In this document: one piece after another, positions 2,638-43,960 of the stretch
Position numbering within the stretch: the stretch's first letter is position 1
Layout: the number at the start of each line of letters is the position of its first letter
Source: Escherichia phage vB_EcoM_SHAK7704
Sequence record: OR594181
Length of the DNA stretch: 44,446 nucleotides
Reading direction: 5' to 3' (one strand)
Translations under genes and position numbers: made by a program
Notes under the pieces: model-generated
Told to the model about the DNA's origin: nothing
Seen by the model: only the letters and a program-made list of their open reading frames with translations
Databases searched by the model: none

Positions 2638-3327
2638 ATGCTGGGAGTAACAGGACAACGCAATAAGAATGTAGCCACCAAAGTGGTGGCTGATTTAGCT
2701 ACTGCTGCTACTGTCGAGGAATTACGAAACCAACATAGCTCTATTAACCGTGCTGACCTTTCTGGTAAACAAGAAGGTTCCGCCGTTATTATTAAGAAAG
2801 AAGATGGGAATTATTCTATCTTTGTAGCAACAGGAAGCAAGCCGACTGATGTGTGGAAAGAGTTGTCTCCAACAATACCAGAGCAAGAGATGCCTGCTGA
2901 ATATATTGATATGATTGATGTTCAAATTCATCAAGATTCTGCAAGCAACTTACATATAGACTCTTCTCGCACTAGTTTAATACAAACACCAATGTGGGAT
3001 ACTGAAGGTGAGTTGTTATTCCGTAATACACTAAGTGCAACATGTTCTTGTACTATTCTTGTTGATGGTGCGTCTGGTGTTCGTCAGGATTTTACTTTTA
3101 AGATTAATGGACTTTTAGAGCAGGAAGAGCAGTATTATGATATTGACACACTTATGTGCTCTATTCACTCTGCAACAACAACTAATGGCCTTACCTTGTG
3201 TATGCCAGATGCTAAAAGTGCAAAGACTAATAAAGTGGTAGTTAAGATCGACACTATGCAGTCATTAGCTATGAGCTTTGATCTTAACTTCCTTGTAGAA
3301 TGGACGTCACCAACGAGGTTACTATAA
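2638..3327 (+). CDS. Hypothetical protein, paralog C (family domain plus ~140-aa C-terminal extension)
   Basis: 229 aa; N-terminal domain homologous to A and B; stop overlaps the endolysin start (TAATG). Confidence 0.6.
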   Translation: MLGVTGQRNKNVATKVVADLATAATVEELRNQHSSINRADLSGKQEGSAVIIKKEDGNYSIFVATGSKPTDVWKELSPTIPEQEMPAEYIDMIDVQIHQDSASNLHIDSSRTSLIQTPMWDTEGELLFRNTLSATCSCTILVDGASGVRQDFTFKINGLLEQEEQYYDIDTLMCSIHSATTTNGLTLCMPDAKSAKTNKVVVKIDTMQSLAMSFDLNFLVEWTSPTRLL

Positions 3328-4245: not shown

Positions 4246-4263
4246 ATTTACTGGACACTATAG
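4246..4263 (+). promoter_or_regulatory. Phage RNAP promoter ATTTACTGGACACTATAG
   Basis: Exact consensus 18-mer upstream of the tailspike genes. Confidence 0.7.
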
Positions 4264-4347
4264 AAGAGATAAGATAGTGCCGTTCTTTTGAGCGGCCTAT
4301 TACTAGCCAATCTTCATAGGGAGGATTGGGAAGTAATAGGAGAGTAT

Positions 4348-4683
4348 ATGGCTAAGTTAACTAAACCCAAGACAACTGGCTTACTACATAGAGATACTGT
4401 ACTAGCTACATTATTGGATAATTTACTATCTAAAAGGCGTGTTACATTTGAAGGTGTAGTTCCAAGTGAAGATACTAAAATTGAGATAGAAGTACCTGCA
4501 ACAGGAGATTTAGATTCTTCGTGGGCATCACTTGTATCATTAAGTACACCTACACTTTGTACAGCTTGGATTACTAAAGTGTCAGATACTAGATTAGAAG
4601 TACATGTGTTCCATACAGCACAAGTTGAAATAGACATAGATGTAGATGTTTACATTCTAGGTAAACACATTGTCAGTGCGTAA
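4348..4683 (+). CDS. Short tailspike-like protein (111 aa) in the second-tailspike position
   Basis: ATG 4348 with GGGAGG/AGGAG RBS; sits directly upstream of the endosialidase, where K1-5-type phages carry a second tailspike. Confidence 0.5.
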   Translation: MAKLTKPKTTGLLHRDTVLATLLDNLLSKRRVTFEGVVPSEDTKIEIEVPATGDLDSSWASLVSLSTPTLCTAWITKVSDTRLEVHVFHTAQVEIDIDVDVYILGKHIVSA

Positions 4684-4750
4684 GCACTGCTTTTCGCGCA
4701 ACTTTTCTTAAAGGTTATCATGATGGTAGCCTTTCAGAAAAGGAGGTTAC

Positions 4751-7186
4751 ATGATTCAAAGACTAGGTTCTTCATTAGTTAAATTCAAGAGTAAAATAGC
4801 AGGTGCAATCTGGCGTAACTTGGATGACAAGCTCACCGAGGTTGTATCGCTTAAAGATTTTGGAGCCAAAGGTGATGGTAAGACAAACGACCAAGATGCA
4901 GTAAATGCAGCGATGGCTTCAGGTAAGAGAATTGACGGTGCTGGTGCTACTTACAAAGTATCATCTTTACCTGATATGGAGCGATTCTATAACACCCGCT
5001 TCGTATGGGAACGTTTAGCAGGTCAACCTCTTTACTATGTGAGTAAAGGTTTTATCAATGGTGAACTATATAAAATCACGGATAACCCTTATTACAATGC
5101 TTGGCCTCAAGACAAAGCGTTTGTATATGAGAACGTGATATATGCACCTTACATGGGTAGTGACCGTCATGGTGTTAGTCGTCTGCATGTATCATGGGTT
5201 AAGTCTGGTGACGATGGTCAAACATGGTCTACTCCAGAGTGGTTAACTGATCTGCATCCAGATTACCCTACAGTGAACTATCATTGTATGAGTATGGGTG
5301 TATGTCGCAACCGTCTGTTTGCCATGATTGAAACACGTACTTTAGCCAAGAACGAACTAACCAATTGTGCATTGTGGGATCGTCCTATGTCTCGTAGTCT
5401 GCATCTTACTGGTGGTATCACTAAGGCTGCAAATCAGCGTTATGCAACAATCCATGTACCTGATCACGGATTATTCGTGGGCGATTTTGTTAGCTTCTCT
5501 AATTCTGCGGTAACAGGTGTAACTGGTGATATGAAAGTTGCAACAGTTATAGATAAGGACAACTTCACGGTTCTTACAGCCAATCAGCAGACCTCTGATT
5601 TGAACAATGCTGGAAAGAATTGGCACATGGGCACTTCCTTCCATAAGTCTCCATGGCGTAAGACAGATCTTGGCCTGATACCTCGTGTTACTGAAGTTCA
5701 TAGCTTTGCTACTATTGATAACAATGGCTTTGTTATGGGTTATCACCAAGGCGACGTAGCTCCACGCGAAGTTGGTCTTTTCTACTTCCCTGATGCTTTT
5801 AACAATCCATCTAATTATGTTCGTCGTCAGATACCATCTGAGTACGAACCGGATGCGGCAGAGCCATGCATCAAGTACTATGACGGTGTGTTATACCTTA
5901 TCACTCGTGGTACTCGTGGTGACAGGCTTGGAAGCTCTTTGCATCGCAGTAGAGATATAGGTCAAACTTGGGAGTCACTAAGATTTCCACATAATGTGCA
6001 TCATACTACTTTACCGTTTGCTAAGGTAGGAGATGATCTTATTATGTTTGGTTCAGAACGTGCAGAAAATGAATGGGAAGCAGGTGCACCTGATGATCGT
6101 TACAAGGCATCTTATCCCCGCACCTTCTATGCACGATTGAATGTAAACAAGTGGAGTGCAGATGACATTGAATGGGTTAACATCACAGACCAAATCTATC
6201 AGGGTGACATTGTTAACTCCAGTGTAGGTGTAGGTTCGGTGGTAGTTAAAGATAGTTACATTTACTATATCTTTGGTGGTGAAAACCATTTCAACCCAAT
6301 GACTTATGGTGACAACAAAGATAAAGACCCATTTATTGGACATGGACACCCTACTGATATATACTGCTATAAGATGCAGATTGCAAATGACAGTCGTGTA
6401 TCTCGTAAGTTTACATATGGTGCAACTCCTGGTCAGGCTATACCTACTTTCATGGGTACTGATGGTATTCGCACTATTCCTGCTCCACTTCACTTATCAG
6501 GAGAGGTAGTTGCCGCAGATATGACTGTCGAACACCTTACCTTGAAGGCAAGTACAAGTGCTAATATTCGCTCAGAGATGCTGATGGAAGGTGAATATGG
6601 GTTCATTGGTAAGACTATACCAACGGATAACCCAACCGCCCAACGTGTTATCATCTCTGGTGGAGAGGGTACAGCAGCAGATACCGGTGCGCAAATTACC
6701 TTACATGGAGCAGGTTCTAGCACTTCTAGACGCGCAGTATATAATGCCAATGAGCACTTGTTCCAAAGTGGAGCTATCATGCCATACAATGATAACGTGT
6801 ATCCTGCTGGCGGCCCTCGTAATAGATTCACTACTATCCATCTTACAAGTGACCCTATTATTACGTCTGATGCCACTCATAAGTATGGATCACAAGGTAT
6901 TGATGAGAGTGTACTAAAGGCATGGGGTAAGGTTAGCTTCAAGCAGTACAAGTTGATTGGTGAGATGTCTCGTGGTGTGCACCACACTCACTTTGGTGTA
7001 TTGGCACAAGACATTGTAGCTGCTTTTGCATCCGAAGGGTTAGATGCAATCGACTTCGGCATTGTCTCCTTCGAAGAAGGTCAGTTTGGTGTTAGATATA
7101 GTGAAATCTTAATCTTGGAGGCTGCTTATACTCGCTATCGTTTAGACAAGTTAGAGGAGATGTATGCCACTAATAAAAGCAGTTAA
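4751..7186 (+). CDS. Endosialidase tailspike (endo-N-acetylneuraminidase) with C-terminal intramolecular chaperone domain
   Basis: 811 aa; sequence recalled as near-identical to K1E/K1-5 endosialidase; C-terminal chaperone-domain motifs; strong AAAGGAGG RBS. Confidence 0.9.
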   Translation: MIQRLGSSLVKFKSKIAGAIWRNLDDKLTEVVSLKDFGAKGDGKTNDQDAVNAAMASGKRIDGAGATYKVSSLPDMERFYNTRFVWERLAGQPLYYVSKGFINGELYKITDNPYYNAWPQDKAFVYENVIYAPYMGSDRHGVSRLHVSWVKSGDDGQTWSTPEWLTDLHPDYPTVNYHCMSMGVCRNRLFAMIETRTLAKNELTNCALWDRPMSRSLHLTGGITKAANQRYATIHVPDHGLFVGDFVSFSNSAVTGVTGDMKVATVIDKDNFTVLTANQQTSDLNNAGKNWHMGTSFHKSPWRKTDLGLIPRVTEVHSFATIDNNGFVMGYHQGDVAPREVGLFYFPDAFNNPSNYVRRQIPSEYEPDAAEPCIKYYDGVLYLITRGTRGDRLGSSLHRSRDIGQTWESLRFPHNVHHTTLPFAKVGDDLIMFGSERAENEWEAGAPDDRYKASYPRTFYARLNVNKWSADDIEWVNITDQIYQGDIVNSSVGVGSVVVKDSYIYYIFGGENHFNPMTYGDNKDKDPFIGHGHPTDIYCYKMQIANDSRVSRKFTYGATPGQAIPTFMGTDGIRTIPAPLHLSGEVVAADMTVEHLTLKASTSANIRSEMLMEGEYGFIGKTIPTDNPTAQRVIISGGEGTAADTGAQITLHGAGSSTSRRAVYNANEHLFQSGAIMPYNDNVYPAGGPRNRFTTIHLTSDPIITSDATHKYGSQGIDESVLKAWGKVSFKQYKLIGEMSRGVHHTHFGVLAQDIVAAFASEGLDAIDFGIVSFEEGQFGVRYSEILILEAAYTRYRLDKLEEMYATNKSS

Positions 7187-42600: not shown

Positions 42601-42998
42601 AAGCCTATGTGAACTCTATTGGGAGAGAAGACCAAGATGAATATTTGGAAGAGAAGTTATCGCCTAAAGGGTTGGCCTTTGGTGCAATGGGTATGATGAG
42701 TACAACTGCTGTATTTAGTCTAGGTGGAGATTTCTTAGGTGGCCTAGGTGTTCTACCTTCTGAGTTAGTACAATCCCGTTATGAGGCTGGCTTTCAGACT
42801 AAGGGTTTGATAGACCAAATACCACTAGTAGGTGTTGGTCAAGATGCATATCGTTTAGCAGATTCTATAACTAAATATGCAGAGGGTGATACAGAAGGTG
42901 TAGATGTGGCACGTAGGGCTTTACGCTTAGTGCCTCTAACTAATGTAATAGGAATCCAGAACGCATTGCGTTATGGCTTAGATGAACTGGAGGATTGA
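39690..42998 (+). CDS. Large internal virion (ejection) protein (gp16-like)
   Basis: 1102 aa; largest structural gene before the tail adaptor. Confidence 0.75.
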   Translation: MEQDIKTNWAGYVQSTPEPFSIEAAPVSAPTIRQRNELQEQVLEAKADADILGAVGAAFQNEWLAFGGKRWYDRATADFTPQPDFEIQPEQREALRFKYGTDMMQTITEGVRSEDELNFRIQNADEDLERNKRIAQAGWVGSVATIGAAVLDPVGWVASIPTGGAAKVGLVGRAVRGAIAAGVSNAAIESVLVQGDMTRDLDDIMVALGSGMAMGGVIGAVARGRATKLSEQGDDRAASIVRSADAGDRYVRAVADDSIGAMRVKGEEVLTEGAFDVSSKGEDLLKTLQREGNAIDMTPRRWAGTLSALGTVVHSSQDASVRGLGARLFESPQGLGMQKASASLMQNTNLNRLKSADMNRFNDGFDLWLKENNINPVAGHTNSHYVQQYNEKVWEAVRIGMDESTPKSIRMAAEGQQAMYREALALRQRSGEAGFEKVKADDKYMPDIFDSMKARRQFSMHDKEDIIELFSRAYQNGSRKVPKEVADDIARAQVNRVADATLTGQLSFEKAMSGQTKAEYEALMRKAGFSDEEIEKMVEALDNKETRDNISNRAKMSLGLDVTQEYNGIRMRDFMNTNVEELTDNYMKEAAGGAALARQGFSTYQAALNAIDLVERNARNAAKDTKAHAQFEAESAKIRQSEPDYKKAQEKIEELKKRLKLKEKDEAAGLAIDEEIRQMREGLRLIMGKSIDSNPQDLSTKMLRRGRDITGVLRLGQMGFAQLGELANFMGEFGIAATTMALGKQFRFTSKALRNGDGFFRDKNLAEVERMVGYIGEDNWLTTKGARPDEFGDVTTVRGMMAHFDQSMNSIRRAQTNLSLFRMAQGSLERMTNRQIALSFIDHLEGKKIIPQKKLEELGLTQEFMTNLQKHYDANSKGSGLLGFDTMPYAMGETLANAIRRKSGLIIQRNFIGDEGIWMNKALGKTFAQLKSFSLVSGEKQFGRGIRHDKIGLAKKTAYGFALGSIVYAAKAYVNSIGREDQDEYLEEKLSPKGLAFGAMGMMSTTAVFSLGGDFLGGLGVLPSELVQSRYEAGFQTKGLIDQIPLVGVGQDAYRLADSITKYAEGDTEGVDVARRALRLVPLTNVIGIQNALRYGLDELED

Positions 42999-43960
42999 TG
43001 AGTTATACTTTCACAGAACATATAGCCAACGGTACGCAAGTAACCTATCCCTTTAGATTTGCTGGCAGGGATAAAGGCTATCTTCGTGCCTCAGATGTGA
43101 TAGTGGAATCTCTTCAAGGTAACACTTGGATTGAGGTTACATCTGGCTGGCAATTAACTGGTACGCATCAAATCACTTTTGATGTAGCACCTGTTGCAGG
43201 TTTGAAGTTCCGTATTCGAAGGGAAGTACAAAAGGAGTATCCATACGCTGAGTTTGACCGTGGTGTTACCTTGGATATGAAGTCTTTAAATGGTTCTTTC
43301 ATTCATATACTGGAGATTACACAGGAGTTACTTGATGGGTTTTATCCAGAAGGATACTTCATTAAGCAGAATGTAAGCTGGGGCGGCAATAAGATTACTG
43401 ACCTAGCTGATGGTGAGAATCCAAAAGATGCAGTAAATAAATCACAGCTAGATGCTATCGACAAGAAGCATACTGATTGGAACTCTGCACAAGATATAGA
43501 GATTGCTGGTATTAAGAGAGGAATGGTGTCTGGTGTATCTCATCGCACTATTCCTTGGTATATGGTCGCCTCCGGTGGAGAGCAAATCATTCGACCACCT
43601 TACTCATTTGATGATGCTATGGTGTTTATAAACGGTGTATTCCAGCATGAACTAGCAGGTGCAGTATCAGTGGGGTATAATGTTATAACCCTGTCCGAGC
43701 CATTACAGGCTGGGGATGAAGTTTATGTGCTTATAGGTAGTCGCTTAACCCCACCTACAAGTGCGGATACTATCCTCTTTACACAAGCAGTGAGTGAAGG
43801 TACACAATCTATCGACATTGTAACGGCTTTCCAACGTCTTGATGTATACTTGGATGGCCTGTATCAACCTAATAATGCTTATGAAATCGTAGGGTCTACT
43901 ATCACTTTCAGTGAGCCATTACCTGAGTGTGTCGTAAGTATGAAGCTACAACTAGTGTAA
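42998..43960 (+). CDS. Tailspike adaptor protein (T7 gp17 N-terminal-domain-like)
   Basis: 320 aa; ATG 42998 overlapping the upstream TGA; position before holin as in SP6-like phages. Confidence 0.7.
   Translation: MSYTFTEHIANGTQVTYPFRFAGRDKGYLRASDVIVESLQGNTWIEVTSGWQLTGTHQITFDVAPVAGLKFRIRREVQKEYPYAEFDRGVTLDMKSLNGSFIHILEITQELLDGFYPEGYFIKQNVSWGGNKITDLADGENPKDAVNKSQLDAIDKKHTDWNSAQDIEIAGIKRGMVSGVSHRTIPWYMVASGGEQIIRPPYSFDDAMVFINGVFQHELAGAVSVGYNVITLSEPLQAGDEVYVLIGSRLTPPTSADTILFTQAVSEGTQSIDIVTAFQRLDVYLDGLYQPNNAYEIVGSTITFSEPLPECVVSMKLQLV

Follow-up and report, generated by a model that had tools for sequence, protein, structure and literature searches.

How has a gene of only 111 codons come to stand in the place where phage K1-5 carries the gene for a 632-residue K5 lyase, followed by that for an endosialidase, and what does its product do there? 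The question is raised by gene 46 of Escherichia phage vB_EcoM_SHAK7704 (sequence record OR594181), of which a stretch of 44,446 nucleotides (nt), hereafter the window, was analyzed. The gene lies directly ahead of the endosialidase tailspike gene (gene 47), and the two positions are called here slot 1 and slot 2. The answer that we consider probable is that the product, gp46, is a small, non-enzymatic accessory protein of the virion which docks on the trimeric tail adaptor gp37 and fills the first of its two sites. Gene 46 and its general interpretation are already known, having been published years ago. What can be added is that the body of the protein is an orphan sequence that selection maintains, rather than a shortened K5 lyase, which corrects a phrase repeated in reviews; the interest that remains lies in the unexplained selection on this body.

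The open reading frame (ORF) extends for 111 codons on the plus strand, from an ATG at 4348 to a TAA at 4681-4683, and the AGGAG at 4338-4342 is its ribosome-binding site (RBS), five bases ahead of the ATG. A sequence-only reading of the window had given this ORF the same start, stop and length. Over 561 bases around it, identity reaches 99.8% with Escherichia phage K1E KY435490 and 98.6% with the K1E reference AM084415, in whose annotation the ORF is gp46 and the next gene gp47, the tail spike endosialidase. These matches identify the window as the genome of a K1E-type Vectrevirus and the ORF as the already described K1E gene 46, which an older record, X78310, labels “12 kDa ORF” and which also goes by the names CAJ29457.1 and PK1Ep60. 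K1E gp46 and the protein of the window share their length of 111 amino acids (aa), 97-100% of their residues, their flanks and their neighbors. They differ, in the case of AM084415, at residues 51-53, which read TAW there and ATG in the window. Every other allele has (A/S/V)TG at these codons, and because four DNA differences crowd together there, TAW may be an old sequence error and not real variation. A metagenome contig of 26 kb has the same arrangement as the window, with lysis genes, then a 111-aa ORF, then the endosialidase. Among the PHROG families, the protein is the sole member of number 15083, of unknown function.

Two other readings of the locus were rejected. An upstream TTG start at 4288, which would give 131 aa, has no RBS, whereas translation from the ATG at 4348 begins with the conserved MAKLTKP. 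On the opposite strand, an ORF at 4314-4637 (107 aa) was discarded as a gene, all genes of the phage being on the plus strand. In KAW1A4500, ULINTec4 and ACG-C91 it stays open for 84 codons instead of 100; it is less well kept than gene 46 and is therefore not the object of conservation.

Slot 1 is best described through its flanks. On the left, the window matches K1-5 and T145P2 almost base for base, starting upstream of the promoter, as far as the AGGAG element that ends at 4342, beyond which identity collapses; the docking codons of gene 46 are conserved as protein and diverged as DNA in comparison with the same two phages. On the right, the sequences become alike again near 4658; from the hairpin at 4674-4689 onward, across the 77-nt intergenic region and into the endosialidase gene, they match completely. 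These flanks are conserved over about 96 records, and the distance between them falls into three size classes: about 329 nt (the gp46 type, with 26 records, 24 of them genomes), about 1453 nt (T145P2 and Mt1B1_P10) and about 1907-1921 nt (the K5-lyase type and others). With its 24 genomes, the gp46 type outnumbers every other arrangement among the sequenced Vectreviruses that carry an endosialidase. The sequence-only reading had assigned the ORF to the K5-lyase slot of K1-5 and had called the locus a hot spot for host range. The assignment is right, the position being the same and the flanks identical, and the description is apt, since cassettes with inserts of three sizes are exchanged between conserved flanks.

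The right-hand junction deserves a closer look. The spike genes of T145P2 and K1-5 stop at the TAA of a common TA(G/A)GTAA element. In K1E-type phages TAGGTAA is still there (4658-4664) but falls in the frame cta GGT AAA, and the gene 46 ORF therefore goes on for seven codons, to the TAA in the loop of the hairpin. This short match suggests that the body of gene 46 may have been joined to the right flank by illegitimate recombination, with TAGGTAA as the scar.

At its N-terminus, gp46 resembles a tailspike. The protein starts MAKLTKPKTTGLLHRDTVLATLLDNL, its residues 1-7 (MAKLTKP) being identical to those of the K5 lyase, and residues 1-14 (MAKLTKPKTTGLLH) are conserved across Vectrevirus slot-1 proteins, whose common motif is MAKLTKP.T.G(I/L)(L/I)H. 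BLASTP aligns residues 1-45 with the K5 lyase of K1-5 at 39-41% identity (E = 7e-07, pairwise), the identities clustering in residues 1-14 and at L23-D24. A phmmer search of PDB sequences has a sole match, to the N-terminal residues 1-45 of the K5 lyase 2X3H, and residues 1-27 align with the 479-aa slot-1 spike of T145P2 (E = 1e-05). When seven slot-1 N-termini are aligned (two K1E-type alleles, K1-5, T145P2, NTNC80A, Lelliottia phD2B and SP6), M1, T5, P7 and L23 are invariant. The similarity to slot-1 tailspikes is limited to residues 1 to about 25 (MAKLTKPKTTGLLH...LD), with alignments extending to about 45. In a passage citing Leiman et al. (2007), PMC6872550 gives the proposal that the K5 lyase docks in the middle of gp37 through MAKLTKP, and has the endosialidase docking on the C-terminal part of the same adaptor through MIQRLGSSLVK. 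The gene 47 product of the window begins with this slot-2 undecapeptide, and the T145P2 translation is identical there. The sequence-only reading, which had staked itself on similarity to a tailspike N-terminus, thus finds it in the K5 lyase of K1-5, in 2X3H and in the other slot-1 spikes.

The body of the protein, from residue 26 to residue 111, has a different affiliation, or rather none. When 1.84 billion representative proteins were searched exhaustively with an HMMER profile, gp46's own cluster came up and nothing else, and a word-indexed search of 5.8 billion proteins returned three gp46 clusters, each of 111 aa and at least 84% identical. With Pfam, gp46 gave nothing above threshold and one sub-threshold Ig-like match (E = 0.071, 13.7 bits for a cut-off of 27); PADLOC gave no match. 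BLASTP detected no similarity to the K5 lyase past residue ~45, and when the whole protein and residues 26-111 were compared by six-frame tblastn with the K5-lyase gene, the T145P2 slot-1 gene and both SP6 spike genes, the best E was above 2. In a distant blastn search of 4385-4750 against 50,697 phage records, the body (4385-4653) was present in K1E-type phages only. A frameshifted or internally deleted tailspike was rejected as the source of the body, both the six-frame tblastn and the distant blastn searches being empty, and so was the C-terminus (~90 residues) of the T145P2 spike, for which the match was insignificant (24% over 33 residues, E = 3.1). The composition of the gene is also unusual: its GC content is 35.4% against a genome mean of 45%, within the lowest 0.3% of 336-nt windows, and its GC content at third codon positions (GC3) is 17%, against 30-49% in the other genes sampled from the window, 37% in the K5-lyase gene and 28% in the T145P2 spike gene. 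Given this AT-rich composition and the lack of a match to the K5-lyase gene (kflA) in any frame, a “truncated kflA” is therefore unsupported for residues 26-111. In origin, the body is to all appearances a separate AT-rich cassette, foreign or arisen de novo.

The whole of gp46, body included, is under purifying selection in nature. Gene 46 has exactly 111 codons in all natural isolates examined and in both metagenome contigs. Among six alleles, Nei-Gojobori estimates of synonymous divergence (dS) go up to about 0.37-0.38, and the ratio of non-synonymous to synonymous divergence (dN/dS) is 0.15-0.44. The ratio of the corresponding proportions of differences (pN/pS) is about 0.2-0.35 for the gene as a whole. 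For residues 26-111 alone it is 0.18-0.35, and the deficit of non-synonymous changes has a binomial p of 2.7e-05 to 0.01. Eight alleles together show at least 34 synonymous changes versus 30 amino-acid changes, the latter mostly conservative (L/V/I, A/S/T, D/E), and in simulated neutral substitution over a path length of 0.365 the gene remained free of stop codons in 0.45% of runs. From pN/pS, the constant length and the neutral simulation, it follows that the body is maintained and not decaying.

Frameshifts are nevertheless on record in two sequences of a single laboratory lineage, that of PK1A and its derivative PK1A2. K1A (EF507428, a gene fragment of 3.8 kb) has an additional A after about codon 48 of gene 46, and mutPK1A2 (MG004687, a complete genome) lacks an A at about codon 44, its submitters annotating a premature termination; the disruptions occupy about 440-445 of the K1A stretch and positions 601-741 of the mutPK1A2 stretch that were compared. 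Both indels leave the docking module intact. As they differ, at least one of them arose independently or is a sequencing error, and sequencing errors could account for one or both.

What shape might the body have? AlphaFold2 (AF2), supplied with an alignment of four close sequences, gave models of low confidence (pLDDT 58-66). In the model of the full protein (pLDDT 58, pTM 0.45), residues 1-14 are disordered, residues 15-24 form a helix ending ...LLD, and beta-strands follow up to residue 104; a second run, on residues 15-111 (pLDDT 66, pTM 0.55), again gave the helix and six strands. An independent model of the ACG-C91 ortholog, taken from BFVD, agrees with the first of these two at a TM score of 0.70 on superposition. 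Two models and two programs gave weak top fold matches with R1/R2 pyocin fiber tips, with H-type lectins and with C-terminal domains of phage tailspikes; members include Helix pomatia agglutinin, SLL-2 and discoidin, as well as the C-terminal domains of the LKA1, AP22 and Pam1 tailspikes, and an “H-type lectin domain” entry is among the BFVD matches. For such models, the resemblance to lectins and fiber tips is a lead only. The feature expected of a depolymerase, a beta-helix or propeller domain of several hundred residues, is absent from the 111 residues of gp46 by Pfam, AF2 and homolog searches. A 106-aa “tailspike protein” of Salmonella phage SE14 (BFVD A0A5C0CAW3) has a TM score of about 0.6 to the gp46 model (Foldseek E = 0.015), and on this predicted likeness it may be another mini slot protein, from a different phage group.

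The signals ahead of the gene bear on its expression. The sequence ATTTACTGGACACTATAGAAGAG at 4246-4268 is a perfect consensus promoter of the SP6/K1-5 type, one of two perfect copies in the window; a scan of the window for such promoters gave eight matches with 0-3 mismatches, against none expected in shuffled sequence. The same scan found no further phage promoter between 4268 and the start of the endosialidase gene at 4751, and for this reason the promoter at 4246 most likely heads the tailspike module as a whole, driving both gene 46 and the endosialidase gene. The sequence-only reading had granted the small ORF “its own promoter at 4246”: the promoter is there, with a perfect consensus, but it is not private to that ORF.

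These observations can be assembled into the explanation that we favor. Gene 46 would be expressed together with the endosialidase gene from the tailspike promoter, and gp46 would form trimers whose N-terminal peptides occupy the first docking site on trimeric gp37. The first ~14 residues (MAKLTKPKTTGLLH) and the short helix would be the same docking module by which K1-5 holds its K5 lyase, while a beta-sandwich knob of about 85 residues, foreign or de novo, would take the place of a beta-helix depolymerase of about 600 residues. The one active specificity would be K1, provided by the endosialidase in slot 2. Slot 1 would stay capped, and the promoter-leader-RBS segment, together with the intergenic flanks, would form a landing pad for the recombination of new tailspike cassettes. 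We infer that the selected role of the body is structural, the capping or stabilizing of the adaptor site, and not receptor binding. Several features of the adaptor-docked slot-1 proteins of SP6/K1-5-like phages (Vectrevirus, Zindervirus) are found in gp46: the docking peptide, a cognate gp37 encoded in the same genome, and the gene position, which is after the lysis genes and a phage promoter, directly upstream of the slot-2 tailspike and between conserved flanks.

The literature agrees with this explanation as far as it goes. A passage of the review PMC6966330 states that cryo-electron microscopy of K1E shows gp37 connecting gp46 and gp47, and describes gp46 as inactive; where they cite Leiman et al. 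(2007), PMC6966330 and PMC5380687 present gp46 as a small, non-enzymatic protein held on the adaptor gp37. Since the docking interpretation stands in published reviews, the sequence-only reading is essentially the published one. Its wording, “remnant or minimal placeholder,” has to be split: a placeholder with a docking peptide fits the reviews, but a remnant, in the sense of a decaying or truncated K5 lyase, does not fit the data. A literature search for virion proteomics of K1E-type phages returned nothing relevant.

Four considerations weigh against the favored explanation. Its placement in the virion rests, in the literature, on a low-resolution map of K1E, and as of August 2026 the tail structures of K1E and K1-5 were at low resolution only (PMC13450770). 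The structure models of gp46 are of low confidence, as is to be remembered with pLDDT values of 58-66 and four close sequences. The body is constrained, though a pure “cap” would need the docking module alone, which hints at a further role. Finally, PK1A2 phage was propagated on a host strain (PMC5715158); as the frameshifted mutPK1A2 could thus be grown, the body seems to be dispensable in culture.

Comparison with known proteins helps to place gp46. The K5 lyase KflA (gp46 of K1-5 and K5, 2X3H) has the same promoter, leader, RBS and downstream intergenic region, and the same N-terminal docking motif, MAKLTKP.T.G(I/L)LH...LD. It differs in being a 632-aa protein made of a beta-helix lyase and a chaperone domain, whereas K1E-type gp46 has 111 aa and no enzymatic domain; the base compositions differ as well, and past residue ~45 there is no similarity in any frame. 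The 479-aa slot-1 tailspike of T145P2 and Mt1B1_P10 has the flanks in common with gp46, a near-identical endosialidase as partner and a similar N-terminus (MAKITKPVTTGIIH), and on the right-hand side of the T145P2 slot the DNA similarity of the flank reaches a little deeper into the gene's 3′ end. This spike differs by its pectate-lyase-type FGAKGDG motif and its full-length body, which has no significant similarity to residues 26-111 of gp46. A third comparison is offered by Klebsiella podophages, in which Latka et al. (2019) described stubs that keep the docking peptide, in KpV767 (69 aa) and KP-Rio/2015 (61 aa), and explained them by retrograde evolution, one specificity being lost and the docking site left for future cassettes. 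Like gp46, these stubs are very short proteins in a receptor-binding protein (RBP) slot with a conserved N-terminal docking peptide. Unlike gp46, they belong to other genera, have another docking peptide and dock on a branching domain of the first RBP, not on a separate adaptor; they are also single isolates, whereas gp46 has a longer, folded-looking orphan body, selected across about 24 genomes.

Does the selection on the body call for more than a cap? An alternative which we regard as possible, though unlikely, is that gp46 is a minimal tail knob, horizontally acquired or evolved de novo, made of the docking peptide and a lectin-like beta-sandwich of ~85 residues, with a selected function of its own in the virion. 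If true, this function might be the binding of a secondary receptor, or the tuning of adaptor geometry or of endosialidase processivity, and it would explain both the dominance of the mini-cassette and its stable upkeep in K1-specific Vectreviruses. A more specific proposal, and a doubtful one, makes gp46 a mini-RBP: a trimeric lectin-like knob that would bind a secondary surface ligand without degrading it, for example a sugar of the lipopolysaccharide core or O-antigen, or the K1 polymer, and so aid reversible adsorption. Such a protein would account for purifying selection that reaches beyond the docking peptide into the body, for the recurrence of carbohydrate- or receptor-binding trimeric domains among the weak top fold matches, and for the gp46 configuration being the commonest among K1 Vectreviruses. 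However, the protein, Pfam and HMMER searches gave no sequence homolog with a known ligand, the frameshifted mutPK1A2 still propagated on a host strain, and the reviews, in the passages concerned, call gp46 inactive (PMC6966330, PMC5380687).

It might also be asked whether the protein matters at all. We give little credence to the idea that gene 46 serves mainly as an RNA or translated leader, keeping the promoter at a distance from the endosialidase gene and setting the expression or stability of their common transcript, with a protein that is not in the virion. In its favor, a single promoter appears to serve gene 46 and the endosialidase gene, the frameshifted mutPK1A2 propagated, and conserved hairpins flank the ORF, in the leader, at the stop codon and abutting the endosialidase RBS. 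The leader hairpin (4273-4301) folds at -16.9 kcal/mol (z = -4.4), and the segment 4664-4755 at -29.9 kcal/mol (z = -4.8); in each case none of 200 shuffles folded equally well. The stop-codon hairpin (4674-4689) is part of the centroid fold and is identical at all loci examined, including K1-5 and T145P2. It carries a putative “Terminator” annotation in KAW1A4500 and LL11, although a simple terminator scan of the window did not call it. The 77-nt intergenic region is 88-99% identical among Vectrevirus and Zindervirus records. An RNA role would nonetheless leave unexplained the deficit of amino-acid changes and the conservative replacements, as well as the fact that gp46 still has the very docking peptide of virion tailspikes. 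Translational coupling is unlikely because the endosialidase gene has its own strong RBS, 67 nt past the gp46 stop, and since other phages place 1.4-1.9 kb in the same interval, the spacing between promoter and endosialidase gene is unconstrained. The two strongly structured hairpins at 4273-4301 and 4702-4742, conserved across genera, bracket slot 1; by analogy with T7-like phages, they could be RNase III processing or mRNA-stabilizing sites.

The last alternative is scarcely credible: that gene 46 is a decaying pseudogene, left over from a kflA truncated as a K5-type ancestor specialized on K1 (a passage of PMC5380687 attributes to Clarke et al. (2000) the proposal that the K5 lyase was lost through kflA truncation) can draw on the shared slot and flanks, on the 39-41% identity over the first 45 residues, on an ORF that runs past the place of the ancestral stop in a different frame and terminates inside the intergenic hairpin, like a junction scar, on the frameshifted copies of the PK1A lineage and on the precedent of truncated second RBPs keeping a docking peptide (KpV767, 69 aa; KP-Rio/2015, 61 aa), but it is largely refuted by the similarity tests (residues 26-111 match no kflA frame, with a best E above 2, and show no DNA similarity; GC3 is 17% versus 37%) and by those of selection (low pN/pS, conservative replacements, and 111 codons invariant at dS up to ~0.37, against 0.45% of neutral runs).

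A slot-1 cap, as favored above, would depend on the adaptor, gene 37, whose product has in the window the N-terminal Pfam domain PF03906 (Phage_T7_tail) and belongs to PHROG 2710. It is 72% identical overall to gp37 of K1-5, being near-identical up to residue ~160 and about 52-55% identical thereafter. The C-terminal half (residues 161-320, encoded by 43478-43957) is of one of two types, with a clear gap between them: identity to the window is 80% or more in 25 records and below 60% in all others. Strict co-variation of gp46 with the divergent C-terminal half was considered and rejected, for ULINTec6 combines gp46 with a C-terminal half of the K1-5 type. Since gp46 is thus paired with the other adaptor type, the C-terminal half of gp37 can itself be exchanged as a module.

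The two-slot adaptor of K1E, K1-5 and SP6 is a model of specificity swaps in podophages and a template for host-range engineering. For the design of chimeric tailspikes, gp46 raises two practical questions: does an empty-looking slot need a cap, and are ~25 N-terminal residues enough to load a cargo?

Features of slot 1 and its surroundings in the window, with the basis of each assignment
Feature	Position	Strand	Basis or remark
SP6/K1-5-type phage RNA polymerase promoter	4246..4268	+	Identical in T145P2 and K1-5; annotated promoter in X78310 and Y10025
Conserved 5′ leader hairpin of the tailspike transcript	4273..4301	+	RNA fold; near-invariant in K1-5 and T145P2
Ribosome-binding site AGGAG of gene 46	4338..4342	+	Sequence reading; annotated RBS in X78310; right end of conserved left flank
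Gene 46 (K1E gp46, “12 kDa ORF”), 111 aa	4348..4683	+	97-100% aa identity to K1E-type gp46; purifying selection
Codons 1-25, docking module	4348..4422	+	The only part shared with full-size slot-1 tailspikes
Codons 26-111, orphan AT-rich body	4423..4680	+	No homologs outside its own cluster; predicted six-stranded beta-sandwich
TAGGTAA, start of conserved right flank	4658..4664	+	Junction sequences; reading frames from ORF coordinates
Hairpin CAGTGC-GTAA-GCACTG, followed by CTTTTC	4674..4689	+	Gene 46 stop (4681-4683) in its loop
Second conserved intergenic hairpin	4702..4742	+	Ends on the first bases of the endosialidase RBS AGGAGG (4741-4746)
Gene 47, endosialidase tailspike	4751..7186	+	Five Pfam endosialidase/chaperone domains
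Gene 37, tail adaptor, proposed dock for both slot proteins	42998..43960	+	Translation, Pfam, PHROG

The Pfam domains of the gene 47 product are End_N_terminal, End_beta_propel (E = 5.6e-222), End_beta_barrel, End_tail_spike and Peptidase_S74. Elsewhere in the window, two features set this genome apart from AM084415. The large terminase (1-1896) is one uninterrupted ORF of 631 codons; its AM084415 counterpart consists of two parts, gp40A and gp40B, with a putative homing endonuclease gene (gp40.5) inserted between them, which the window does not have. Between the gp42-like gene and the gene for an M15-peptidase endolysin-like protein, the window also carries an ORF of 229 aa at 2638-3327 (GC 39%, GC3 30%), for which the AM084415 gene list has no counterpart; a 233-aa gene occupies the same place on a metagenome contig. 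The 229-aa product has no Pfam or PADLOC match. It falls in PHROG 32357, of unknown function (E = 5e-121), with a weaker match to PHROG 2725, “acetyl-CoA acetyltransferase,” and its gene may be the extra one noted by Korf et al. (2019) in KAW1A4500 and mutPK1A2.

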